DNA from: an uncultured Actinomycetes bacterium
GTDB lineage: Bacteria; Actinomycetota; Actinomycetes; S36-B12; CAIYMF01
Reading direction: 5' to 3'
DNA: 32,000 nt
Assembly (NCBI GenBank): GCA_963843975.1
Contig: CAWJMG010000001.1
Coordinates: forward strand, 300,001-332,000
Part shown: piece after piece, positions 3,731-32,000 of the stretch
Layout of the letters: every line of letters begins with the position of its first letter
Numbering within the stretch: position 1 is the stretch's first letter
Notes under the pieces: model-generated
The model's input: the letters and a program-made list of their open reading frames with translations, nothing else
Told to the model about the DNA's origin: nothing
The model's database searches: none
Made by a program: the position numbers and the translations under genes

Positions 3731-4996
3731 CGGCTCTTGGCTGTCGACCATGAGCTCGGCGTGCACGCCGTCTGACCGACCCAGGGCCCGCAGAAGCCGG
3801 CCCACGAGTCGGTAGGTCAGCTGCCCGGACGCCTGCTCCATCTCCTCGGTCGTGACGACGCAGTAGTTACGGAAGTCGCCGCCGCCAACGGCGTACGCCT
3901 GTGGCCGGACTCGGAAGTTCCATCTGCTGTGCTCGAAGGCTGCCAAGCCCTCGATGCCAGTCGCGGCGGCACCGAGCAGCCACGGCCCTCGATAGCCGGT
4001 CTCGCGACCAACGTGCAGGGCCATGAGGATCAACTGTCGGGTGTACGCGACAGCCATGACATCGAAGATCTGCTGCACGGGGGTCTGGTCGCCATCTCGC
4101 AGGCCGTCGCTGAAGCGACCCGCGAAGAGCCGCAGCTGGCCGTCTTCGCTGAGTTCGACCTCCACGATGTCTTCCGGGTGGCTGTGACCGATGTCGGGGT
4201 TGAGCGTGCGGTCGGGGTTGAGCCCGTGGCTGGCGAACGCCGCCCCGTCCGGCCGTCGGGCCGGCTGGTTGGCGTCTCGCAGCTCAGGCACGAAGAGCTG
4301 ATGGCCGAGCGGAGAGACCTGCAGAGCGGCTGTCATCATCGCCCGGAAGCGGCTCTGCCAGTCGGACCCGTGCACCAGCGGGAGCGCCATCTCCAGCGTG
4401 GGCCGAACCGGTGAGGCGACTGCGAAGAAGTGGGCCTGCTCCCGGGTCGCCTCGGGTACGGGATCGCGGGCGATGAGCTCATCGAGGAGCTGCGCGCCCG
4501 CCTCCCCACGCAGGTGAAGCTGGGAGTGCAGCCGCGTCACGTCGGCGTCCGAGAGCCGGATCTTGGTCTTGTCGCCGCGACCCATGTACACGTGCTGGAC
4601 CATGTGCGGCGCCCGCGGCGACGCGGGCACATGGACGACGACGTAGCCGAGGCCCGGACCTCCGCCGGGGATGACCTCGGTCCGCAGGTACAGCGGTGGG
4701 TCGATGGCAGTCAGCGCGATCTGCTCGATGCGTTCGGGTAGACCGGCCAACTCAACGGGAGCCGGCTCCAGCCGCCCTTCGTTCTCGGCAACGCCGAGGA
4801 TCAAGGTGCCGCCGTCGATGGCGAACTGGGCCAGGTCGCGTGCGAGCTCTCGGTTGGCTGACTGGCCGCCTTCGACGGCCGACTTGAACTCGAGGTAGTG
4901 ATTCTCCTCGACCAGCCCGGATGCCAGGGCGTCACGAAGCTCGGCTTCGTTACGCGGTCTCCAGCGGGGTGTGCCGGGGCCCGTATAGACGGTCAC
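3722..4996 (-). CDS. AlbA_2/Schlafen-like domain protein with an uncharacterised C-terminal ~300 aa; fourth gene of the type I R-M operon
   Basis: 424 aa. The N-terminus ...[22 protein letters not shown]...[15 protein letters not shown]...[10 protein letters not shown]... fits my recollection of the AlbA_2 (PF04326) signature. The GTG start (4996-4994) overlaps the hsdR TGA (4995-4993) as GTGA. Confidence 0.75.
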
Positions 4997-7900
4997 GCTG
5001 CTTCCTCACTGGCGATGACTTCAGCCTGTTCGAGTACGAGTTGCGTAGCGGTGGGCTCCTGGTCGGGCGGGTAGCCGTACTTGAGCAGGAGCCGGCGGAT
5101 GGTGGCGCGGAGCTTGGCGCGGACCTGTTCCTTGACGTTCCAGTCGGTCTTGGCGTCGCGGCGGACGATCTCGACGAGCTCGTGGGCGATCTTCTTCAGG
5201 GTGTCGTCGCCCAGTTCCATAACGGCGGACTGGTTGGCACAGATGGCGTCGTAGAAGGCGAGCTCGTCGTTGTTCAGACCGAGCTGGGTGCCGCGGTCGG
5301 CCTCGGTCTTGAGAGCCTGGGCGAGGGCGACCAGTTCGGCAACGACCTGGGCGGCGTCGAGGGTGCGGTTCTGGTAGCGGAGCAGGGATGCTTCGAGCAT
5401 CTCGGAGAACTGCTTGCCGGTGACGATGTTGCGCTTCCCGACGCGGCGGATCTCGTCGTTGAGGAGCTTCTTGAGCATCTCGATCTGCAGGTTCGGGTTG
5501 TTCGCGGTCTTGAACTTGGCGATGAACGACTCGTCGATCAGGGACAGGTCGGGCTTGGCGATGCCGGCTTCCGCGTAGATGTCGATGACGCCGGTGCCGG
5601 TCATGGCGTCGGACAGGATCTGACGCACGGCGGTGTCGAGGGCGGCGTTGGGGTCGCCGTCCTCCCGGTCGGATCCTTCGATCTTGGAGATCTGGGCGCG
5701 GACTGCCTCGAAGAAGGCGACGTCGTCGCGGATCTTCAGGGCGGCGTCCGAGGGGACGCACATGATGTAGAGCTTGACCAGGTCGCGGGTGTTGGACATG
5801 AACCGGCACTTCAGGCAGGGCTGGTCCTTGGTGCAGGCGTCCTTGCCGGTGCCTGGGTGCTTGGACAGCAGGTATTCGACGGTTCCGGTGAGCGTGTCGA
5901 GGAAGGCCTTGGGACCGCCGGCGGCGAGCTTCTTGCGCCAGTCGTAGCCGTGCAGGATGGTCACGACGACGTCGTGCTTGGCCTTCATGCCGGGGATGGC
6001 CTGGGCGGCGATGTCCTGACCGAGCTCCTGGTTCTCCTGGTCGCGCTGGGTGTAGTCGGCAAGCGCGGATTTGAGGTCTTCGGCGATGCCGAGGTAGTCG
6101 ACGACGAGGCCGGCGGGCTTGTCCTTGAAGGTGCGGTTCACTCGGGCGATGGCCTGCATGAGGTTCGCGCCCTTCATGGGCTTGTCCACGTACATGGTGT
6201 GCATGGAAGGGGAGTCGAACCCGGTCAGCCACATGTCGCGGACGATGACCAGCTCGAGCGGGTCGTTGGGGTCCTTGGCGCGGGACTTCAGGTCGCGCAA
6301 GGCCTGCTTGGAGCGGATGTGGGGCTGCATGGTCTGGTCGTCGGCAGCGGAGCCGGTGATGACGACCTTGAGGACACCGGTGCCGTCATCGTCGGTTGCC
6401 CAGTCGGGGCGCAGCTTGGCGATCTCGTCGTAGAGGGCGACCGCGATGCGGCGCGACATGGTGACGATCATGGCCTTGCCGGCGAGGACCTCGCGGCGCT
6501 TCTCCCAGTGCTCGACGATGTCGGCGGCGAGCTCCTTGATGCGCTTCTCCGACCCGACGATGGCTTCGATCTGCGCCCAGCGGGTCTTCAGTCGCTCTTT
6601 GGCCTCCTCCTCCGTGCCGGACGTGGCGAGGGCGAACGCTTCGTCGAGCTGGGCGAGGGTGGACTTGGGGAGCTCGATCTTGGCCAGACGCGGCTCGTAG
6701 AGGACCTTGACGGTCGCTCCGTCGGCGACGGCCTGGGTGAGGTCGTAGACGTCGATGTAGTCGCCGAAGACCTGCTTGGTGGACTTGTCCGCCGACTCGA
6801 TCGGAGTGCCGGTGAACCCGATGTACGTGGCGTTCGGAAGTCCGTCGCGCAGGTGGCGGGCGAACCCGTCGATGAAGTCGTAGTTCGACCGGTGGGCCTC
6901 ATCGACCATCACCACGATGTTCATGCGATCCGACAGGGTCGGGAACGCCGTGCCAGCGTCCTTCTCCTCCTTGGAGAGCCCGAACTTCTGAATGGTGGAG
7001 AAGATGATCCCGCCCGACTGACGCTTCGCCAGCAGAGCCTTCAGGTCGTCGCGGCTGGTCGCCTGAAGGGGCTTCTCCGGCAGCGGAGCCCCGGGGCGGG
7101 AAGCGGCGAAGGTGTCGTCGAAGAGCTGGTCGTCGAGGTCGTTGCGGTCGGTCAGGACGACGATGGTGGGGTTCTCCATCGCCGGGTGGCGCATCATCTT
7201 GCCGGCGTACCACTCCATCTCCAGGCTCTTGCCTGAGCCCTGCGTGTGCCAGACGACACCGGCACGACCGTCGCCCTCGACCGCTTCCACGGTGGAGATG
7301 ACGGCCTTGTTGACGGCCCAATACTGGTGATACTTCGCGGTCTTCTTCACCAGCACGCTGGTCTTCAGGCCAGCGGCGTCGGTCTTGGACTCGTCGCTGT
7401 AGACGGTGAAGTTCCGGACCAGGTCGAGCAGGCGCTCCGGATTGAGCATGCCCTTGATGAGCACCTCGATCTGCGGCGTCGACGCTGGCGCGAGGTTCAT
7501 GCCGTCGATCGTCTTCCAGGGCGCGTAGTGCTCCCAGCCAGCGGTGAACGTCGCGGCGCGGGCCTGGACCCCGTCGGAGATCACGCTGACCTGGTTCCAG
7601 GTGAACGCGTCAGGGATCTGCTTCACATACGTCTGGATCTGGTTGAACGCACCTTTCAACGTCGCGTTCGACGTGCCGGCCCGCTTCAACTCGACGAGGA
7701 CGAGCGGAAGGCCGTTCACGAACAGCATCACGTCAGGCCGTCGTTCACTCTTCCCGATGATCGTGAACTGGTTGATCGCCACGAGGTCGTTGTTCGACCA
7801 GTCATCCCAATCGACAAGGCGGGCACGCACGCCACGAATCGACCCGTCAGCCATGCGGAACTGAACCGGAACGCCGAGCGTGAGGAGCTCGTAGGCACGC

Positions 7901-8157
7901 CAGTTCTCCGCCATCACCGACTGCGACTCAGCACGAAGCGCAGTCTTGACGACCTCGTCTACCGCGTCAGCGGGAAGGTCAGGGTTCAGACGCGAGACGG
8001 CATCACGCAGACGGCCGCGGAGGATCGGATCACGGTAGTCCGTGCGCTCAGCACCCGGCTCCCCCGGTGCAATGTCCGGGCCATAGACGAGCGCCCAGCC
8101 TTCTGACTGCAGATAGTCGAGGACTAGGAACTCAAGCTCGGACTCCGTCGGGATCAT
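4993..8157 (-). CDS. hsdR: type I restriction endonuclease subunit R (HsdR), 1054 aa
   Basis: N-terminal nuclease region ...[23 protein letters not shown].... Helicase motif I ...[10 protein letters not shown]... and DEAH box ...VMVDEAHRS.... ATG 8157 ([10 protein letters not shown]...) is chosen instead of tracked start 8244, which would overlap hsdS by 85 nt. Confidence 0.95.
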
Positions 8158-8159
8158 GC

Positions 8160-9278
8160 TCACGCAGCAACATCCCCCACCCGTACACGCCCCGACATCA
8201 ACAACGGCAGCAGCTCGTCGCGGGTGGACGCGAGCTCGCTGCATTCAACTTCGAGCACCTGCGCCGTGTTCCAGAGCGGGTGGATGACACTCATCAGCCG
8301 AGCCAGGTCGGATTCGGGAAGGACCTTGATGCTCCGCCGTAGAGCATTCTCCCTATTGAGGCCAGGTACTGCGGAATCCGTGTTCATCCCCGAGAGCCCA
8401 ACCGACTCCAGTGCGAGGAACGCGTACAGCATGGGAAGCTCAGTCTGCACATAGAAGGCCGTGTCAATGGGGAAGAAGTCGGCATCAACCCAGGTGACCG
8501 ATCCAACTGTCCCCTTACGGCCGACGACCACGCCTGGCCCCGACACCAATGACTTGTCATGCGAGTCGACGATCCCGGCGCTGCTCACAACTGGGAAACG
8601 GCCCGGTCGTCGTTCTCTCGCTGGAAGCGCCTTGCCGTACTTGAAGTCGATCACATCTCCCGCAACGACTGACGCGCCACATGCCACCGCTGACTCATAG
8701 GTGCTGCGAACTAGCGCTCGCAGATCCGCAATAAGCTGCCGGTCCACCTCGATGAGGTCATCCAGTGCTCCTAGAACCCCCGCGATACGACGCTGCTCGT
8801 CTAGGGGAGGAAGCAACACAGGCAGTGCGGACAGGATCTCGGTGTTCAGGTTCGGCATCGTCGCACCGACCGCCCGAGCGATAAGCCAGTCGTGAACGAG
8901 AGGTGACCCGAGCCAGTACGAAAGCCAGGTCGGATCCGCTGACTGGCCAGGACGCACCAGCAAGCATCCCGTTCCGCACAGCCAACCCGCTTGTGGGCCT
9001 CGAATGAGTGCCCGCTTGGTGATGTCACCTCGCCGGGAGTAGACGACGTCTCCGGCGCGAACCTTGTGTCGAGACAGCCTCTCGACGTGCTCGGTCGCGA
9101 CACGGGCGATGCCGGCCTCTTCCACTCGGTTCTCGCCGATGTTCGTCGGCATCACGACCGGCGTCCCCGCGGCGATGTAGTCACTCGCGTGGAGCTGGCT
9201 TCCGAACGGCCCCGTCTGAATCGAACCGCCAGCAGCGCACATCTCCCCGAGAGTGGTCCAGACAGCCGGGCTAGTCAT
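8160..9278 (-). CDS. hsdS: type I R-M specificity subunit (HsdS), 372 aa, two target-recognition domains
   Basis: Central conserved helix ...[27 protein letters not shown]... and C-terminal repeat ...[20 protein letters not shown] 9278 overlaps the hsdM stop (TAG 9271-9273) by 8 nt. The stop at 8160 lies 2 nt before the hsdR start. Confidence 0.92.
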
Positions 9279-10881
9279 CCGACGGCACTTCCAGTGAGAG
9301 AAGCACGGTCATGACGTTCGACTGGAGGCTAGCGCGAGCCTCGAATCCCGTAGAAACCGCAGCGCGGAGACGGGTGATCTTCTCCTCGAGGGGCTCTCCA
9401 TCGTCCTCGGCATCTTCAGCCCCGACGTATCGCCCTGGGGTGAGGACATGGTCGTGCGCACGGATGTCTTCGATCTTGACGGAGGCGCAGAAGCCGGGGA
9501 CGTCCTTGTACTCACCAGCCTCGGATTCGCCGCGCCATGCATTGAAGGTGCTGGCGATCTTGGCGATGTCCTCATCGGAGAGTTCGCGCACAGTTCGGGT
9601 GGCCATCGCGCCGAGGTTGCGAGCGTCGATGAACAGGATCTCGCCCTTGCGGTCACGCTGGTTGTGCTCACTCTTGACCTTGCGGTTGGACTTGTCCTTG
9701 GTCAGGAACCAGAGGCAGACGGGGATGCCGGTCGTGTAGAAGAGCTTGTCCGGCAGGGCGACGATGCACTCGACGAGATCGTCTTCGACGAGGTTCTTGC
9801 GGATCTCGCCCTCACCTGAGGTCTTGGAGGACAGGGAGCCGTTAGCGAGGACCGTCGCCATGGTTCCTGTCGGTACCAGGTGGTGGAGCATGTGCTGGAT
9901 CCACGCGAAGTTCGCGTTGCCGGCCGGCGGGGTGCCGTACTTCCAGCGCGGGTCGTCGCGGAGGTGTTCGCCGCCCCAGTCGGAGATGTTGAAGGGCGGG
10001 TTCGCGATCACGAAGTCAGCACGCAGGTCCGGGTGCTGGTCGTTGCCGAACGAGTCGCCCCACTGCGCGCCAAGGTTCGCGTCGATGCCGCGCAGGGCGA
10101 GGTTCATCTTGGCGAGCCGCCACGTGGTGGGGTTCATCTCCTGGCCGAAGACGGAGATGTCGTTGCGGACACCCCCGTGGGCCTTCACGAACTTGTCCGC
10201 CTGCACGAACATGCCGCCCGAGCCACAGGCGGGGTCGTAGACGCGGCCGTTGAACGGTTCGAGCATCTCGACGAGCAACTGCACGACCGAGCGTGGTGTG
10301 TAGAACTCGCCGCCGAGCTTGCCTTCTGCGGAGGCGAACTGGCCAACCATGTACTCGAATACGCGACCGAGAACGTCGAGGCCCTCGTGCTCTGCGGCGG
10401 TGAGGTCTTCGCGGGAAAACGTGTCGATCAGGCCACCGAGGGTGGCAGGCGTGAGCTCGCGGCGGGCGTAGTTCTTCGGGAGGACACCCTTGAGGGAGTC
10501 GTTCTCCTTCTCGATGGCGTCCATTGCCGCATCGATGCGTGAGCCGATGTCGGGCTGCTTGGCGGCCTTGCGGAGGTCCTCCCAGCGGTGACCCTCGGGG
10601 ACCCAGAAGACGCCTTCGGATGTGTACTCGTCGCGAGCCTCGAGGATGGCCTGCTTGGCCGCCTCAGACGGCATGTAGTAGTCGGAGTCGGGGTCGTCGA
10701 CGAGCGTCGCGAGCTGCGTCCGGCGCTGGTTGAAGACGTCCGAGACGTACTTGAGGAAGATCAGCCCGAGCACGACGTGCTTGTACTCGGCAGCGTCCAT
10801 CTGGCTGCGAAGCTTGTCCGCTGCCTGCCACAGGGACGCTTCGAGTCCCTGGCTTTCCTGGTTCTTGCTCCTCGGTGGCAC
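9271..10881 (-). CDS. hsdM: type I R-M N6-adenine DNA methyltransferase subunit (HsdM), 536 aa
   Basis: HsdM N-terminal domain (...[32 protein letters not shown]...). SAM motif ...[12 protein letters not shown]... and catalytic ...VIANPPFN.... GTG start at 10881. Confidence 0.95.
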
Positions 10882-10968
10882 GCTTCCCCCGCTGCTGGAT
10901 CACGCTGGCTCTATCGAACTCAGAGACACCGTACCGACGACATCCCACGACGCACGGCACCTTGTCCT

Positions 10969-11164
10969 GAGGTGCCGGGATCCGTCCCGAGGGGCGCAGC
11001 CCGACGACCAGCCGGCGGCTTCGCCGCAGTGGGGGTCGTGGCGGCGCGGCGGTCCTCCCGATTCCGAGGGACCTCGCCGACCCCTGCCCTTCGAGGAGCC
11101 CAACACAACGACGAGGAGCCCCGGCGCCGTAGCGCAGGGGCTCCTCGAAGTGCAGGGGTGAGTG
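10969..11164. repeat. ssrA-downstream flank module (copy adjacent to ssrA)
   Basis: GAGGTGCCGGGA 10969-10980 repeats ssrA 11165-11176, followed by a degraded T-arm-like stretch. Also contains GGCGGCTTCGCCGC 11014-11027, the 30-mer 11053-11082, the half-arm CGAGGAGCCC 11092-11101, a hairpin at 11112-11147, and GGGGTGAGTG 11155-11164. Paralogous to 663-894 plus 2332-2414. Confidence 0.6.
11112..11147 (-). terminator. hairpin immediately downstream of the ssrA 3' end (putative ssrA terminator)
   Basis: Perfect 11-bp stem CGAGGAGCCCC / GGGGCTCCTCG with a 14-nt loop, starting 16 nt after the tmRNA discriminator base. On the minus strand it is followed by TCGTTGTGTT. Confidence 0.55.
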
Positions 11165-11524
11165 GAGGTGCCGGGAATCGAACCCGGGTCCTTCGTTGGC
11201 GATCAGGGTCTTCTCCGGGCGCAGCCTGCTGTGTTTTTCTCGGCCCCGACAGTCACGCAGGCAAGCTGTCGACGGGCTCAGTCACTGTTTGATGTCCTGC
11301 GTCACCCCGTGACCGGGATGGCAGTAAGTCCCCTAACTGACGCCAGGAACCGGAGCGGGAACGCCCCCGGGCTGACGGACTTCAGGCTCGCTTAGGCAGC
11401 GAGGGCGAAGTCAGTGCGCTGAGAATTGGCACTTGTATTTAGGTGCTGGATCGTTTGCGAGATAACCAGCATCCTCGGCCCGCTTCTCCCATCACGACAG
11501 ACGAAGTCGAAACCGATCACCCCC
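11163..11524 (-). ncRNA. ssrA: tmRNA (SsrA), 362 nt, tag peptide ANSQRTDFALAA
   Basis: Minus strand starts GGGGGTGATCGGTTTCGAC.... It ends ...GGACCCGGGTTCGATTCCCGGCACCTCCA, a tRNA-Ala-like T-arm. The 7-bp acceptor stem includes a G3:U pair. Tag ORF GCC AAT TCT CAG CGC ACT GAC TTC GCC CTC GCT GCC TAA lies at 11430..11392. The terminal CCA is not encoded (CTC follows the discriminator A). smpB is 5.5 kb away. Confidence 0.95.
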
Positions 11525-25020: not shown

Positions 25021-26523
<1,503 letters not shown>

Positions 26524-26550
26524 TTGCGCGCACTCGACGCACTGCGAGGG

Positions 26551-27576
26551 ATGATGAGCCACCCGGCAGAAGTTGTGGATCGAGAAAGTGCTTCGGCGGC
26601 GCTTGCACGGGCGTCGCTGTCCCCGAATGTCCAGGCGCTTGCTAACGCATTCGACCCTGCAATTGGACTGGCGGGACTGGTCCAGCATGTCGAGACAACG
26701 GTGCTGCCAAGGGCTTCGCCGCCGGACCAAGTCCAACTGAAACGCATACTCGATGCGTGGCGTCACTTGCCGTCACAGAGCCACGGGGGCCGAGAGTCCT
26801 TGTTGGGAAGGCTCCTGCGCGTATCCAACGGATGGGACATGCGTTGTGGGTCAGAGAGAGATGCGATTCCTCGCTGTTCAGACATGTTCACGGACGCCGT
26901 GACAGAATCAGTATTCGCAGTAGCGGACGAATGGCGACTCGTTGAACCATCGCATCCGCCGCTGGTGGGGTCTGCGGACGCCCTGGTAGTGCTCGGAGGC
27001 TTGGCGCAAGCCACTCGCCTTCGGGTTCGCCGAGGTGTCGATCTGATCGAATCAGGGGTTGCCCGTGAACTCATCGGGATTGCCTGCGCACGACCGTTGG
27101 GCCGCGATGAGGACCAGCTTGGTCGCGGTGCCGCGACTGAGTTCGACGTCATGCAAGAGGAACTCGAGAACTACGCGGGGATCCCAAGAGAGTCTTGGTC
27201 CCCGCGCTCGGTTGGTGCCGGGACGATGAAGGTGAGCCTGGCGGCGCCGTTCGTGTCCGTCGGCTTGGCGCCGGCCGACCCCCGGCGAAAGCGCGCCAAC
27301 ACGAACGACACCCTTCGCTGGCTCCTCGCCGCACGGGAGTTCCCGCGTGACACGCGATTGATCCTATTGACTTCGCAGCCGTACGCGACCGCCACCTCAG
27401 TCGCCGTTCGTGGCGTGCTGCCACCTTGGATGGCAGTCGACGTAGTCGGGATTCCGTCACAACTTCCGACTGACGACACCGCCCCAACTCGACCTCTCCC
27501 GCAATACTTAGTCCAGGAAATGAAGACGGTCGTCGATGCGCTCAGTTACCTTGTCGGACGTGTTGAACAAGATTGA
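26551..27576 (+). CDS. hypothetical protein with C-terminal DUF218/YdcF-like region
   Basis: ORF 26524..27576; ATG 26551 (MMSHPAEV...) is preferred over TTG 26524. ...ADALVVLGGLAQATRLRVRRGVDLIESGVARELIGI...RANTNDTLRWLL...TRLILLTSQPYATATSVAVRG... resembles the DUF218 pattern from memory (VLGG ... SxNTxEN ... VTSxxHxxR). The assignment is weak. It starts 28 nt after the argG stop, where GC visibly drops. Confidence 0.6.
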   Translation: MMSHPAEVVDRESASAALARASLSPNVQALANAFDPAIGLAGLVQHVETTVLPRASPPDQVQLKRILDAWRHLPSQSHGGRESLLGRLLRVSNGWDMRCGSERDAIPRCSDMFTDAVTESVFAVADEWRLVEPSHPPLVGSADALVVLGGLAQATRLRVRRGVDLIESGVARELIGIACARPLGRDEDQLGRGAATEFDVMQEELENYAGIPRESWSPRSVGAGTMKVSLAAPFVSVGLAPADPRRKRANTNDTLRWLLAAREFPRDTRLILLTSQPYATATSVAVRGVLPPWMAVDVVGIPSQLPTDDTAPTRPLPQYLVQEMKTVVDALSYLVGRVEQD

Positions 27577-27598
27577 GCCAAACAGTTCGGAGTAGGTC

Positions 27599-28714
27599 GT
27601 GACTCGTGTCAGTGACTGGTTCACCGACACCTCCACGTCCGCCACCCTCTTCATCGCGGTGGTGGCAGGCCTGTTCGCGGTGTACCAGCTTCGAGCGATG
27701 CCCGCAGAGCGTCGCCGACGCATTCTCAACGGCATGATCGAGCTTTGGAAAGTCAGCCGAGACTCGCGGGCACGACTGCTTTCCAACGGTGACCCCCTGC
27801 TCCTTCAGGGATACCTGCAGGTCAAGAGCCAAGTCACCCGAGCTGCAGCTTTCGAGTCGACGAACGAAGAGGGCGATGACCGGGCAATGCCGCGGCGTCG
27901 GGATCTCGAAGTAGAGGCTCGCTACTGGGGTGGGGCACGGAGCGGGATCTCCTATACCGCCGCGCACGAAGTGCTCGCTTCGGAGCTGAAGTTTCGCTCC
28001 CTCCTCTGGTCGGTTGAGCAGATCCAGCTGGCGGAGGACGGTGAGCCTTCCGTGGCCGACAAGACGATGGTGGCGACCGCCCGTCAGCTAGTGAACGATC
28101 TGACCGACTTCCTGGTCGACTACGAAAGTGGCGCCTACCCGAACCGGCAGCTCTTCGGCACGCTGCATCGGTCCATCGCCCCCACGGCTTGTGCGCTCAC
28201 TCCGTACGTCTGGGCTGGAAGCCTGCGGGGACGCTGGGGGCGACGGGTCCTCCGAATGAGCATCTCAGCTCAGCACTTCAATGACGTCACCGCCATTCAC
28301 AGAGTCTTCGACCTCTACTGGGATTGGCGTGTCGACGGTGGCATGCGAGCAGATGTGTTGATACATCCGGCGCAGACTCGTGACGTCTTCGGCCATGAAT
28401 TCCCCGCAGCAGACCAACCGCGGTCTCCTCTGGCGCTCGCCCTTCTTCGACTGAGGGTCCGTGCCGCCTATTGGAAGGTCGTTTCGGTTCTCAATCCAAG
28501 GCCGAGGTGGTGGTTCAACTCCTACGGTGGCTGGCGCCTCTACCGACATTCGCAATCCGAACAGAAACTGGCTGCGGCGTTGAACTTCGCCCGCGAGGAG
28601 GGCATCTCGGCGCTCGACCTCGAGTGGACCCTAAAGGACCTAGGGACTCAACTCGGCGAACGAGTCAAGACCGAACAACGGAGATACCGAGACCAGGGCG
28701 CATCCGGTGCGTGA
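27599..28714 (+). CDS. hypothetical protein with a single N-terminal TM helix, 371 aa
   Basis: GTG 27599 lies 6 nt after GGAG (27589-27592). TM segment TSATLFIAVVAGLFAVYQL, followed by a Trp/Arg-rich, mostly helical soluble part. No motif recognised. Its stop overlaps the next gene start by 8 nt. Confidence 0.65.
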   Translation: MTRVSDWFTDTSTSATLFIAVVAGLFAVYQLRAMPAERRRRILNGMIELWKVSRDSRARLLSNGDPLLLQGYLQVKSQVTRAAAFESTNEEGDDRAMPRRRDLEVEARYWGGARSGISYTAAHEVLASELKFRSLLWSVEQIQLAEDGEPSVADKTMVATARQLVNDLTDFLVDYESGAYPNRQLFGTLHRSIAPTACALTPYVWAGSLRGRWGRRVLRMSISAQHFNDVTAIHRVFDLYWDWRVDGGMRADVLIHPAQTRDVFGHEFPAADQPRSPLALALLRLRVRAAYWKVVSVLNPRPRWWFNSYGGWRLYRHSQSEQKLAAALNFAREEGISALDLEWTLKDLGTQLGERVKTEQRRYRDQGASGA

Positions 28715-29793
28715 TCTGCCCTGGGGCACAGGAGCACCTTGGCTCGAACTAGTCGGAACTGAGTGCGCCGCTGTGGCCGCTGCGGCGGTGTCCCACCTAG
28801 GCAAGCGACATCGTGTCACACGCGAGCTGACCGCTGGGAGCATCGACTGCTCGACCTTGGTGAGCCAGTCTCATTGGACTGGCGCAGGCATCCAGACGCC
28901 GTTCATTTCAGAGTCCCAACGTCTGGCAGCGACCTCCTTGGAAGTCGACTGGTCCGACCGGCTGCCGGGCGATGTCGTGATCGCCTACGAGTCGGCCAAG
29001 CTCTCTCCGGGGGGCCGCCACAATCATTCGTACGTCTACCTAGGCGGGCAGCGAAACCAGGGCGACTGGGTCGTCCAATCGCGTGAGCGTGAGGGCGTCG
29101 TCCTGACGCCTGCAAACCGGATCCGAAGGGACGGAGGCGTCCGTCGCTTCTGCCCTCACCCGCATGAGAAGTTTGGGGATGGTCCTTGGCGCGCTGCCGC
29201 GCTCCACACGCCGAAGCTTCGGGCGGCTAGGAGCACGCCTAGGCCGTTCGAGGCGCCGACACACCGGAACGGATATCTACGTTCCCGCTGGCGCGCTCGC
29301 TAGCAGCCCCATTGCCGGCCAAGTCGTAGCCATACAGAGGCGACCGTCCGGCGATCGAGTCGTGATTGATGGTGGAGACCTTCTTGCAGTCATGGCCGGC
29401 CTGGACGAGCTCGCGATTGACGTGGGCGACCGCCTCCTAGCGGGGAGCCCAGTCGGTCGAGTCGGCTTTGTGCCTGATGACCCGGAGTGCAACAAGCTTG
29501 AGGCGACCTGCCAATGGCCACGACTTCACCTAGAAGCATGGGCTCGTTCTGAGAGCAGCCCACTTCCCGCAGCGCGAGTGAACGCAGATGAACGCGTACC
29601 CGCTGATTCCGGTTTGGACTGGACCCAGTTCCGAGCGATCAATCCGGTGTATGCAATGAAGCTCGGGCAGGTGGCTTGCCCACTCGACGCAGCCGCTCTC
29701 GGCGAGGCTCCACCTAGAGGGCCTTTGAGCACGAGGGCTGCCATGCCCCTTCTCTCAGAGAAGCTCTCACAAGCAGTTCTTCGCGGGAGTTGA
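28707..29793 (+). pseudogene. two-domain peptidoglycan hydrolase, NlpC/P60 (C40) plus LytM/M23-like, no signal peptide; frames joined by an apparent +1 nt insertion in 29107-29195
   Basis: ORF 28707..29303 carries the NlpC/P60 Cys block ...AGSIDCSTLVSQSHW..., the His block ...HNHSYVYLGG... and ...DWVVQS..., then an Arg-rich tail. ORF 29164..29793 carries the M23-like blocks ...SFGRLGARLGRSRRRHTGTDIYVPAGALASSPIAGQVV..., ...IDVGDRLLAGSPVGRVG... and ...PRLHLEAW.... The ORFs overlap by 140 nt in different frames. The span is 1087 nt (3n+1). Two separate overlapping genes cannot be excluded. Confidence 0.65.
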
Positions 29794-29917
29794 CTGACAG
29801 TTTGAACCCACCGTCTAGGTGGTCTGGGCACGCATCGCTCCCGGCTGCGAAGGACAATGTCCGGGGCGATGGCTGGCAAGCGAAGGCACCCCGCTGACTT
29901 AGGAGCATGGACGGCTG

Positions 29918-30700
29918 ATGGCACCCACCGACTCATCCGATTCCGCCGCCGCCACCACCACGGTGTCGGAGACCAATCCCTCAGCCGAGAAGTGGGACGC
30001 GGTCGCGATGGACTTCATGTTGGCCGAGTACAAGTCCCTCCGCGACGAGTCCTCGCAGTCCAGGTCCGCGCAACAGGCGATCCAGCAGTGGAGTCTCGCC
30101 GGGGTCTCGGCGATTCTCGTCGGCGGCCTTCTGCTGACCGGCAAGAACTTCGACCTCCAGCAGGCGGGGCCACCCAGCACTGCCTTTCTCGTGCTCTTTG
30201 GTGTGGTGCTGCCTGCCCTCGCAACGGTTTCATGTATGGCATGGCTCGGTGAGCTGGTCCGAATGGAGCGGTGCGGAAGATACCTGCGCGGATTCGAAAG
30301 GGACCTCTCCAAACGCCTCAACGGACTCGTGTCGCCAGCCGCGCGAAACCCCCTTAGGTGGGAGACGGCCATCTCGCAGGGCGCGGCCAGCGACAAGGGA
30401 CTGGGTCGGGGCAAGCAGCGGGTTGGATACCTAGGCAGCCTCCTCATGTACCTCGGTGCAGTCTCAGCTTCGTTGTGCTTCTACGTCGTAGGCGTTCAAC
30501 AGCGTCAAGAACCGGCGAATGCGTGGGTCCACTTGCACCTAGCGCTGTTTGCTTGGCCTGCGGTCATGGGCTCGGTGTTCTTGGCGATTGTCGTGTCGGT
30601 CGTGCGATCCATTCAGGAGCTAGGGGCTGAGGTGTTGGAACTGCCGGAAGTCGAACTCCAGAAGCCGGATGGCGACAAGGACAAGAGAGAAGACCAATAG
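29918..30700 (+). CDS. integral membrane protein, four predicted TM helices, 260 aa
   Basis: Hydrophobic segments WSLAGVSAILVGGLLLTG, AFLVLFGVVLPALATVSCMAWLG, VGYLGSLLMYLGAVSASLCFYVVGV and LALFAWPAVMGSVFLAIVVSVV. The C-terminal tail is acidic/lysine-rich. No family recognised. Confidence 0.65.
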   Translation: MAPTDSSDSAAATTTVSETNPSAEKWDAVAMDFMLAEYKSLRDESSQSRSAQQAIQQWSLAGVSAILVGGLLLTGKNFDLQQAGPPSTAFLVLFGVVLPALATVSCMAWLGELVRMERCGRYLRGFERDLSKRLNGLVSPAARNPLRWETAISQGAASDKGLGRGKQRVGYLGSLLMYLGAVSASLCFYVVGVQQRQEPANAWVHLHLALFAWPAVMGSVFLAIVVSVVRSIQELGAEVLELPEVELQKPDGDKDKREDQ

Positions 30701-30781
30701 CCATGCGAAGCGAGAGCAGTCACCCTGCTGTTCGAAGCGCCCTCACACTGATCTCCAAGGTCTCCGCTGCACAGTTCGACT

Positions 30782-31411
30782 GTGGCATCGAGAACACAGC
30801 AATGGGCCCTGGTCGCCCTTTCGTTCGGGCAACGAGACTTCGATCTGGAGCCCGGCCCGATCAATCGGCGCCTCGGTTCAATCGCAGCGAGGTACGTGCG
30901 CGGGCTGTCATCACCAACGCTCGTCGTGGCTCAGTGGGAGATCGCGCTCGAGATGGGTCGCCAAGGCGTTCCGGTCGACTTTGCCGTCTATCCCGAGGAG
31001 GGAGTTGACTACATCGACACGGGTGACGTTTGGCGGCAGGCCCGCCAGTTCCTCGACGCACACGACATCGAACGAGTTGCCCTGTTGGCCCACCCCTTTC
31101 TTCACCGCTCGCTCGCTCGGCACATCATTCGCCGCGACGGCTACATGGTGCAGACACTCAAGACCGGCATGGTGGGATTCGATCCCGATGCTCGCAACCG
31201 CCAGTGGTGGACCCGCGGCCCCGTCCGATTGATGACCTACAGCGCCCTTCGGGCGGCCGGGATCTCTCGCCAGTTTCACCCAACACCGGTGGAGGGTGTA
31301 GCGGCATCCGCTCCTGGCTCGGTAGAAGCGGCGACCGACCACCGGGGGCATATTCGAGCGCAGGAACGGTCAATCACCAGAAGCCAGCATCGGCCAGCCG
31401 AGCAAGATTGA
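30782..31411 (+). CDS. hypothetical protein, second DUF218/YdcF-like protein of the cluster
   Basis: ...WALVALSFGQRDFDLEPGPINRRLGSIAARY...TLVVAQWEIA...YIDTGDVWRQARQFLDAHDIERVALLAHPFLHRSLARHIIRRDG.... Start uncertain. GTG 30782 has no SD. An ATG at 30703, 2 nt after the upstream stop, opens a protein-like 33-aa stretch in the neighbouring frame, so another +1 frame disruption near 30795-30805 is possible. Confidence 0.55.
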   Translation: MASRTQQWALVALSFGQRDFDLEPGPINRRLGSIAARYVRGLSSPTLVVAQWEIALEMGRQGVPVDFAVYPEEGVDYIDTGDVWRQARQFLDAHDIERVALLAHPFLHRSLARHIIRRDGYMVQTLKTGMVGFDPDARNRQWWTRGPVRLMTYSALRAAGISRQFHPTPVEGVAASAPGSVEAATDHRGHIRAQERSITRSQHRPAEQD

Positions 31412-31499
31412 AGCCGGCAGAGGACTGGAGGCACGGCGTCTATTGCGGTCTCGTCACATACCTTCGAGAGCGTCCTGCATTGAGGCGTGGATCTCTTCT

Positions 31500-31600
31500 G
31501 GCCGCGTCCCGTCGAGTGGTGCAACTCCGGGCCTGCCTCCTGAGCGTTCAGGGGACATCGTGTGAGGCTTGGTCAAAACCCGCCAAGCAACTCGCTGTCA
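31500..31600 (+). mobile_element. solo terminal fragment of a second IS256-family element (terminal repeat plus ~70 nt of subterminal sequence, no transposase)
   Basis: GGCCGCGTCCCGTCGAGTGGTGCAACTCCGGGCCTGCCTCCTGAGCGTTCAGGGGACATCGTGTGAGGCTT aligns to the reverse complement of 2262-2331, the transposase-proximal end of the intact IS. By-eye identity is close to 90 percent over about 75 nt and decays by about 31600. No transposase-like frame follows. Confidence 0.7.
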
Positions 31601-31899
31601 ACGACGGCTGTCTCCACTCGTACGCAGAACAACAGGCCGAACTCGTTCCATCAAAGGGCTCGGCCTCGGGATGGTCGAAGAGGCTCTGCAGCGGGCCGTA
31701 GCCGGTAACAAACTCGGAGATCTCGCACCCCCACGCCTTTGCCTCGGCGACGAGCGCTGGGCGCGAGAAACCTCCAAGCGGGACTCGCCGTGGTGGGAGT
31801 CATATGTCGTTCGCCCCCGTGGCTCTTTCGCGCGCGACAGAGTGGGGTTACCTGCTTTCGAAGGCACGGGAAGAAGCAACCAAGGGGGAACGGATCCAC

Positions 31900-32000
31900 A
31901 TGAACAGAAGACTCGCCGCCGTGGCACTGACCGCCATAGCAAGCATCACGCTTGTCGCTTGCGGCACGTCCACTAGCAGCGGCAGCAGCGCGCCTCCCGC
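31900..32000 (+). CDS. lipoprotein, 3' end outside window (possibly a solute-binding protein)
   Basis: ATG 31900 is preceded by AAGGGGGAA. MNRRLAAVALTAIASITLVACGTSTSSGSSAPP is a signal peptide with lipobox LVAC. It is not in the ORF track because it runs off the window. Confidence 0.7.
   Translation, partial: MNRRLAAVALTAIASITLVACGTSTSSGSSAPP

Follow-up and report, generated by a model that had tools for sequence, protein, structure and literature searches.

Peptidoglycan peptides occur inside the cell solely as precursors or as fragments undergoing recycling. Among the described systems to which the locus reported here can be compared are the vancomycin-type reprogramming of precursors, which involves VanX, the membrane-anchored VanY and a ligase, and the recycling of muropeptides by YkfC together with LdcA/YkfA and YkfB. 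In some Proteobacteria and in Micromonospora(ceae)-type actinobacteria, MurD2/MurL constitute a rare alternative route to D-glutamate (D-Glu) (PMC8788868). Here we describe a locus within a 32-kb stretch of DNA from an uncultured Actinomycetes bacterium (contig CAWJMG010000001.1, positions 300,001 to 332,000; hereafter the window), in which five genes (genes 1 to 5) follow the argininosuccinate synthase gene argG. Genes 1-3 are a conserved, rare cassette of actinobacteria, with genes 4 and 5 standing outside it. Gene 2 encodes a single-pass membrane protein and gene 3 a two-domain peptidase homolog that is frameshifted in the window, and we tentatively favor a role of the cassette in the handling of peptidoglycan precursor peptides.

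A sequence-only reading of the window had regarded the five genes as one compact cluster, and the arrangement it described was verified in the list of open reading frames (ORFs): all five genes are co-directional on the plus strand and are separated by a 22-nt gap, an 8-nt overlap and gaps of 124 and 81 nt. The proposed unity of the cluster, for its part, was examined across 15 distinct loci with a gene-2 relative (the window included) and 4 distinct loci with a gene-5 relative, all scanned with local profiles. Gene 3 lies immediately 3′ of gene 2, usually overlapping it, at 11 of the 15 gene-2 loci, and a relative of gene 1 is present at eight of them, with locus L014 keeping the 1-2-3 order. 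At three of the 15 (L004, L011 and L026), the gene 2/3 pair is coupled to a member of a family of about 450 amino acids, referred to here as x447. Identity of gene 2 between loci amounts to 30-45%. Genes 4 and 5, by contrast, accompany this set in the window only: neither of them occurs at any of the 14 remaining gene-2 loci, and gene 4 is missing from all gene-5 loci. The sequence-only reading had itself named a lack of co-occurrence elsewhere as grounds for abandoning the five-gene unit; since genes 4 and 5 never co-occur with genes 1-3 or with each other at any other locus examined, that unit is refuted. A separate clade of gene-2 relatives without gene 3 comprises loci L016/L020, L017-L019 and L021.

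The cassette appears to have traveled. GC content at third codon positions (GC3) of genes 2 and 3 is below that of the flanks at L002-L005, L012, L015 and L026, i.e., at every measured locus except that in Dactylosporangium, and the cassette therefore looks foreign wherever it is located. The exception, a gene-3 relative without gene 2 in Dactylosporangium cerinum (L009; NZ_JBHSIU010000041.1, positions 9890-10936), is the sole match in a cultured organism and has a host-like GC3 of 0.87. No relatives of genes 2 and 3 were found on plasmids. In agreement with the sequence-only reading, which knew of no described system with this gene set, searches of PADLOC, NCBIfam and PHROGs gave nothing specific, neither a database family nor a paper covering genes 1-3 together was found, and no family of PADLOC-DB 2.0 matched any of six ORFs of the window at E ≤ 0.1.

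Gene 2 is the core of the cassette. Its product had been read as a 371-amino-acid protein with one N-terminal transmembrane (TM) helix, which was borne out: the helix occupies residues 11-29 and is followed by the stretch RAMPAERRRR. In the family alignment, acidic residues precede the helix and a RxxxERRRR motif comes after it, with 25 invariant residues overall, many of them charged. Based on the positive-inside rule, this distribution of charges predicts the conserved, helical 340-amino-acid domain to face the cytoplasm. Only 21 relatives were retrieved among 5.8 billion proteins, none of them named, and searches of Pfam, NCBIfam, PADLOC and PHROG, as well as a sequence profile run against PDB, returned no match. 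An AlphaFold2 (AF2) model with a predicted local distance difference test (pLDDT) score of 86 and a predicted template modeling (pTM) score of 0.83 shows long helices and a four-stranded sheet, for which Foldseek found no neighbor in PDB or BFVD (E above 0.1, template modeling (TM) score ≤0.21). Many of the top Foldseek matches were alpha-pore-forming toxins, yet with E values above 0.1 and TM scores of 0.1-0.2; as these merely reflect long helices, they are not evidence, and a ClyA-type pore former was rejected as a candidate. Gene 2 founds a protein family whose invariant residues are in many cases charged, whose structure is predicted with confidence and for which the two structure libraries searched contain no significant neighbor.

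The partner of gene 2 was previously read as a NlpC/P60 plus LytM hydrolase without a signal peptide. Both domain homologies are real and none of the gene 3 homologs has a signal peptide, but in the window the gene is not one ORF, its two domains lying in frames 0 and +1. Peptidase_M23 matched gene 3 above its cut-off (E 2.2e-9, 37.8 bits, cut-off 28.7 bits), NLPC_P60 below it (E 4.7e-4, 20.5 bits, cut-off 23 bits), and RipC was recovered with an E value of 2.1e-4; further weak profile matches were to M23 enzymes, NlpC/P60 enzymes, RipC, Tn916-type hydrolases and PrgK structures. When the NlpC/P60 part was compared with L002-L005 by tblastn, identity was 45-52% over amino acids 18-171. Throughout the family, D47-C48-S49 and H105-N106-H107, which contain the catalytic Cys and His of the NlpC/P60 domain, are invariant. 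In the M23 domain, the HxxxD motif is present (as HTGTD), the last His of the HxH motif is invariant and there is an additional invariant C-N pair.

Intact gene 3 homologs are single ORFs of 344-372 amino acids in which the sequence PKLGRLGARL is read through in one frame. It is exactly at this sequence that the two halves of the gene join in the window, where a +1 shift is needed because there is one base too many at 29217-29220. An intact frame at this site would read AAGCTCGGG or AAGCTTGGG, as opposed to 13 nt in the broken form. An independent Logan assembly (ERR12037365) contains the extra base as well, albeit with C rather than T at 29218. Over the 5,648 bases shared by both assemblies, the only other difference is a 3-base change at 29762-29764, by which a 9-mer around AAGCT becomes reverse-complemented. 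Both changes, four bases in total, touch AAGCT/AGCTT and fall in the M23 part. Given that all four differences are confined to this part, they are compatible either with a pseudogene that is in decay and varies among strains of the population or with a stretch prone to systematic sequencing or assembly errors. As gene 3 is split by this insertion, the window probably contains an inactive cassette, provided that the extra base is not itself an error. Programmed +1 frameshifting at CTT-C-GGG is unlikely, a slippery or rare-codon context being absent.

Gene 1, the first gene of the cassette, is open from position 26524, the mechanical start right after the argG stop codon, with an independent gene call placing its beginning at 26554. 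That its product resembles DUF218/YdcF proteins, as previously suggested, holds only as a weak likeness below threshold: the match to DUF218 (PF02698) had an E value of 0.064 and 13.5 bits and so did not reach the Pfam cut-off of 27.6 bits. Two of seven members of the gene-1 family matched DUF218, the best with an E value of 1.6e-4, and the relatives in L003, L004 and L026 are annotated as PF27209 Rv3785_N. The protein displays the pattern VVLGG...RANT.D...TT..Y..YQ, and no TM segment was predicted. Searching PDB by sequence yielded no match, and in a word-index homology search the query itself was the sole match; relatives of gene 1 came from the local profiles run on the loci.

The cassette is found in two sorts of neighborhood. 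A murD-like ligase gene, usually together with murL and/or pgeF, adjoins it at L003, L005, L012 and L026 in differing arrangements; in L026, a single array of overlapping, co-directional genes is made up of murL, the ligase gene, pgeF, x451, gene 2, gene 3 and gene 1. These loci fall into two deep clades of the gene-2 tree. Because this mur linkage is specific, recurs in rearranged form and spans two clades, we rank first, although with somewhat less than even confidence, the reading that genes 1-3 are a mobile module tethered at the cytoplasmic face of the membrane and acting on peptidoglycan precursor peptides. Gene 2 would anchor in the membrane by its one N-terminal helix and hold or regulate gene 3 at the inner face. 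Gene 3, translationally coupled to gene 2 and lacking a signal peptide, would combine a NlpC/P60 cysteine peptidase with a M23/LAS-type zinc peptidase and might cut cytoplasmic stem peptides, i.e., those of UDP-MurNAc-peptides, of lipid I/II or of imported muropeptides, with gene 1 as a soluble DUF218/Rv3785-like member of the cassette. The whole could thereby serve as an accessory module for precursor editing, remodeling or turnover, functionally tied to MurD2/MurL (L-Glu to D-Glu) and PgeF, much as van genes reprogramme precursors and YkfC recycles. We infer topology, substrate and role of the cassette in this manner, while its foreign composition, gene pairing, frameshift, domain identities and neighborhoods are shown by the sequences; in favor of the enzymatic part, the gene 3 family retains without exception the catalytic Cys and His of NlpC/P60, as it does the HxxxD...H zinc ligands. 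The lone gene-3 relative in Dactylosporangium may be cited here beside the rarity of MurD2/MurL.

A number of observations weigh against a precursor module. Mur genes are lacking in the sequence examined at 11 of the 15 loci, and their linkage at the remaining ones could stem from a hotspot of insertion. At 4 loci gene 2 has no gene 3 with it, and at 2 gene 3 stands alone. The cassette is also very rare, as only 21 gene-2 relatives were retrieved and 185,579 species genomes yielded just 3 loci; for a quality-control role in an essential pathway, this is odd. In the M23 domain, the HxH motif lacks its first His, reading R/L/K-L-H in 5/5 family members, and nothing related to gene 2 by structure (PDB, BFVD) or by sequence (PDB) hints at an activity. 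Lastly, defense-type or mobile-element neighbors are found at ~6 loci, and a C-terminal D...E-A-K motif in x447, which resembles PD-(D/E)xK nucleases, could be the mark of a nuclease.

These latter points lead to the alternative that genes 1-3, sometimes with x447, constitute a new anti-phage or abortive-infection system, in which gene 2 would be a membrane-anchored sensor or switch that, upon infection, unleashes gene 3 and in some versions a nuclease-like partner, so that wall precursors or the wall itself would be destroyed from within and the cell killed or arrested. We consider this possible but less probable than a precursor module, ranking it second on account of rarity, foreign composition, modular content and defense-type neighbors. 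Indeed, the distribution is rare and patchy, the composition is foreign in the hosts examined, and gene content is modular, in that gene 3, gene 1 and x447 each join gene 2 at some loci and not at others. In L004, the neighbor is an OLD/GajA/AriA-like ATPase. L015 carries AAA_33, Hypoth_Ymh (PD-Lambda-3_B, E 3.5e-9) and, directly past gene 3, an AAA_15/21 ATPase, and L002 harbors a PycC-like cyclase-STAND protein, a mad3-like UvrA (E 1e-96), Lsr2 and IS110. The gene after gene 2 in L016/L020 encodes a 1080-amino-acid TPR/HEAT protein, whose N-terminus is similar to the PADLOC candidate PDC-S60 (E 1e-13); the neighborhood of L021 includes a C5 methylase, Vsr and an integrase and that of L014 a transposase, and the gene-3 relative of L009 is flanked by the genes for a 1286-amino-acid trypsin-NACHT protein and an APH/TCAD9 kinase-like protein. 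In the window itself, an Ltp-type lipoprotein gene is the next gene, a type I restriction-modification (R-M) system lies within the same 32 kb, and gene 3 is decayed.

However, the defense neighbors all differ and therefore show merely that these are variable regions, whereas the statistically more specific association is that with murL, the murD-like ligase gene and pgeF (4/15 loci). For none of the five proteins was a PADLOC model recovered, and the nuclease motif of x447 was spotted by eye, with no match of this family in Pfam or PDB. The more specific proposal that genes 1-3 (with x447) are an actinobacterial immune system, whose new-fold membrane sensor would trigger the destruction of precursors and sometimes of DNA and so abort infection, is worded with yet more reserve: we give it roughly one chance in a few. 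If it were true, a cytoplasmic stem-peptide peptidase would represent a class of defense effector of which we found no description. The precursor-module and the defense readings, which both locate the peptidase at the inner face of the membrane, are not fully exclusive, as a cassette that destroys precursors is a plausible suicide effector.

Next in rank, and unlikely in our view, is that the locus has no collective function, being a decaying patchwork of unrelated foreign genes with a hydrolase that is already a pseudogene. The frameshift of gene 3 in two assemblies, together with the concentration of all four base differences in the M23 part, would be in line with this, as would the lack of relation between genes 4 and 5 and genes 1-3 elsewhere and a 490-bp spacer of broken ORFs at the right-hand side. 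Yet, genes 1, 2, 4 and 5 are intact, full-length ORFs that have kept the residues conserved in their families, the 1-2-3 order is identical in L014, and the frameshift may be a sequencing error.

The sequence-only reading had further entertained a toxin-immunity module. In such a module, gene 3 would be exported as a toxin that degrades peptidoglycan, with immunity provided by gene 2 (or gene 1). NlpC/P60 and M23 are reportedly common toxin domains in polymorphic toxin systems, and genes 2 and 3 are tightly coupled. What makes this interpretation improbable is, on the one hand, that gene 3 has neither a signal peptide nor a recognizable secretion or trafficking domain, with no secretion-system genes as a consistent neighbor, and, on the other hand, that most of gene 2 is predicted to lie in the cytoplasm, on the opposite side of the membrane from where a hydrolase of the wall would have to be countered; moreover, gene 2 is far more conserved than typical immunity proteins and contains many invariant charged residues. 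Least probable of all is the resemblance, also put forward in that reading, to a phage-like lysis cassette outside a prophage, with gene 3 as an endolysin released by the holin-like genes 2 and 4: although gene 3 has endolysin-type domains, no signal peptide, adjacent membrane proteins and weak PHROG matches to minor tail, endolysin and metallo-endopeptidase families, relatives of genes 2 and 3 were found neither in 50,697 phage genomes/records nor in IMG/VR, the gene 2 fold is not in BFVD, no capsid or tail genes of an ordinary prophage lysis module were present at any locus, gene 2 is unlike holins because it is single-pass with a 340-amino-acid conserved domain predicted to be cytoplasmic, gene 4 never accompanies genes 2 and 3 elsewhere and has relatives fused to GT2, and in the window the hydrolase gene carries a frameshift.

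Genes 4 and 5 appear to be separate cargo with ties to glycosyltransferase and glycan genes. Gene 4 was correctly recognized as a multi-pass membrane protein in the sequence-only reading, which counted four TM segments where our prediction gives 3-4. Its relatives number 348 cluster representatives at E ≤ 1e-3, and all seven long relatives that were scanned (437-489 amino acids) carry a C-terminal GT2 glycosyltransferase. A plasmid search with gene 4 gave one weak, uninformative match, to a hypothetical protein on a Hymenobacter plasmid.

Gene 5, in turn, shows no sign of being the second DUF218/YdcF-like protein it had been taken for. None of the 16 members of its family matched DUF218, hhalign gave a probability of 0.2% for gene 5 versus the gene-1 family, so that genes 1 and 5 were rejected as paralogs, and the AF2 model (pLDDT 84) shows a generic Rossmann-like domain whose top 50 fold matches in PDB were GT-B halves, cysteine hydrolases and (UDP-GlcNAc 2-)epimerases at TM scores ≤0.38. 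Among 15 relatives of gene 5, the nearest (L006 and L022/L023, around 6001-7486) reside within operons of the order GH8, cellulose-synthase-like GT2, PMT_2, gene 5 relative and GT2, to which they are apparently translationally coupled; others adjoin PadR-PspC or MNT-HEPN genes. The embedding of these nearest relatives in a conserved GH8/GT2/PMT_2 operon, and their apparent coupling to it, suggests that they are a hitherto undescribed accessory component of exopolysaccharide formation in actinobacteria.

Together, the ~5.3 kb from the argG stop codon onward are a horizontally acquired island of foreign base composition that is composite rather than a five-gene system. The drop in GC noted in the sequence-only reading was confirmed by windowed GC content, which falls from ~0.70 to 0.61-0.64 at 26.5 kb, and by GC3, which is 0.97 in argG and 0.84-0.95 in other backbone genes, compared to 0.59-0.76 in all five island genes. 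The one backbone-side exception is hsdS (0.71), which lies within another island. ArgG is complete to its last residue, with 94% identity over 473 amino acids to the ArgG of a Nanopelagicales metagenome-assembled genome (MAG), and since the fall in GC3 comes right after this intact gene, the island starts directly past argG. To the right, the genes of an overlapping Logan contig (L001) show GC3 values that are back up at 0.81-0.91 for the lipoprotein and Tad genes.

At this right edge, the sequence-only reading had placed a solo terminal repeat of the IS256 type, of which repeat, plasmid blastn and Pfam checks found nothing. Inverted or direct repeats around the island did not exceed chance level, blastn against 72,556 plasmids gave no match, and neither did Pfam for the three longest of 13 stop-free segments of ≥35 amino acids in the six frames of 31380-32000. 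With neither a terminal inverted repeat nor a transposase remnant detected, an IS256-family end has no support. Candidate att-like direct repeats around the island were matches of 12 nt only, again at chance level. No tRNA gene was found near the island, the sole RNA gene of the window being the tmRNA gene at 11.2 kb, and a scan for promoters and terminators gave nothing beyond shuffled expectation.

The right-hand spacer of 490 bp contains nothing but broken ORF fragments. On the minus strand at 31551-31799, there is a stop-free fragment of 83 codons (…ISEFVTGYGPLQSLFDHPEAEPFDG…), followed by a frame break, which may be a gene remnant; its GYGPL…DP stretch resembles the N-terminal region of CpaF/TadA-type ATPases, with no match in Pfam. 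The lipoprotein gene that comes next is complete in L001 (5452/5548-6129), where Lipoprotein_Ltp matches three stretches (E 6.1e-32). This family takes its name from a prophage superinfection-exclusion protein. Due to its intermediate GC3, the gene may belong to either the island or the backbone. Beyond the window end, a Tad/Flp pilus set (Tad, TadE and T2SSF) occupies the minus strand of L001 at 6269-8534 (equivalent to window positions 32621-34886) and, with a backbone-like GC3 of 0.82-0.91, serves as the right-hand backbone marker.

Table 1. Coordinates of the features of the window and of the x447 family at related loci.
Feature	Position	Strand	Description
Gene 1	26554..27576	+	340-aa soluble protein; divergent DUF218/Rv3785_N-like Rossmann-type domain; GC3 0.65; first in conserved cassette
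Gene 2	27599..28714	+	371-aa single-pass membrane protein; cassette core
Gene 3, N-terminal part (NlpC/P60)	28707..29303	+	Frame 0; homology stops at ~29219; start overlaps gene 2 stop by 8 nt
Frameshift site in gene 3	29217..29220	+	1-nt insertion, AAG CTT C GGG CGG, within invariant PKLGRLGARL
Gene 3, C-terminal part (M23, LytM-type)	29218..29793	+	Frame +1; callable alone from ATG at 29164 or 29179; GC3 0.59
Gene 4	29918..30700	+	260-aa membrane protein, 3-4 predicted TM segments; apparent cargo
Gene 5	30782..31411	+	209-aa soluble Rossmann-like protein; apparent cargo
argG (argininosuccinate synthase)	25096..26523	+	Left backbone flank; Pfam Arginosuc_syn_C 5.6e-32, Arginosuc_synth 7.2e-18; GC3 0.97
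Right-hand spacer	31412..31899	.	Degenerate ORF fragments only; GC 0.627
Ltp-type lipoprotein gene, start (MNRRLAAVALTAIASITLVAC...)	31900..32000	+	Runs past window end; right flank; GC3 0.81
x447 family	L004 5808-7151; L011 1109-2470 (-); L026 2876-4231		Translationally coupled to gene 2/3 pair
tmRNA gene	11160-11524	-	Rfam 135 bits; ARAGORN tag peptide ANSQRTDFALAA
Type I R-M system, complete	4993-10881	-	hsdM, hsdS, hsdR
hsdM	9271-10881	-	E 1.7e-162 to PDB 3khk
hsdS	8160-9278	-	GC3 0.71
hsdR	4993-8244	-	E 1e-30 to EcoR124 HsdR

Elsewhere in the window, the block of the type I R-M system (windowed GC 0.62-0.66) is probably a second island. The tmRNA gene directly adjoins this lower-GC block at 5-11 kb, and tmRNA genes are classic insertion sites for islands.

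The leads that remain from this analysis are the conserved cassette, the gene 2 protein and the MurD2/MurL link, the window itself offering a composite with a broken hydrolase and no IS256 boundary. Should the cassette act on peptidoglycan precursors inside the cell, it would provide a mobile means to edit or sabotage wall synthesis. It might then exert precursor quality control for the MurD2/MurL route or be a new abortive-infection effector, and both roles are experimentally tractable. The domains of gene 3 are already known, while we could find no description of the gene 2 family, of the pairing of genes 2 and 3 or of their cytoplasmic setting.

Compared with known systems, the cassette shares some features and departs in others. 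Gene 1 may be set beside the DUF218 proteins SanA, ElyC and YdcF on account of its VVLGG... pattern and its sub-threshold DUF218 matches; however, SanA and ElyC both have a TM segment, which gene 1 lacks, and gene 1 scores under the Pfam cut-off. The annotation of gene-1 relatives as Rv3785_N links them to Mycobacterium tuberculosis Rv3785, a protein that appears in the retrieved papers only as an entry in lists. FtsEX-RipC and FtsEX-EnvC/PcsB likewise combine a membrane component with a NlpC/P60 or M23-type factor, and gene 3 weakly matches RipC (PDB 8idc, E 9e-4), but the hydrolases in question depend on FtsE and FtsX and work on the outer side of the membrane, whereas the cassette partners are predicted to be cytoplasmic and come with no ABC components. 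PrgK and the Tn916-like Orf14/CTn1-Orf17 are M23 and/or NlpC/P60 proteins of mobile DNA to which gene 3 shows weak profile matches (PDB 8s0u, 4hpe and 9ubf); unlike the cassette, they are membrane-anchored or secreted and belong to type IV secretion clusters, with no conjugation genes present here or at the related loci.

The systems that deal with precursors and muropeptides come with differences of their own. YkfC, encoded beside wall-peptide enzymes, is a NlpC/P60 gamma-glutamyl peptidase without a signal peptide and in this is similar to gene 3, but it contains SH3b domains, has neither a M23 domain nor a membrane partner, and is chromosomal housekeeping as opposed to a rare mobile cassette. 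MurD2/MurL and PgeF (PMC8788868) act on UDP-MurNAc-peptide intermediates and adjoin the cassette at the four loci named above; none of them is encoded in this window, and the cassette does without them at 11 of 15 loci. Finally, the cassette is unrelated in sequence to VanX, VanY, VanA and VanH, adds a NlpC/P60 domain, has in gene 2 a partner that is no peptidase and lacks a two-component regulator. Yet, it resembles vancomycin-type reprogramming in that it is mobile, encodes a LAS-group zinc peptidase (HxxxD...H) next to a membrane-anchored partner and would act on precursors at the cytoplasmic side, with an amide ligase, in the form of the murD-like gene, adjoining it at 4 loci.

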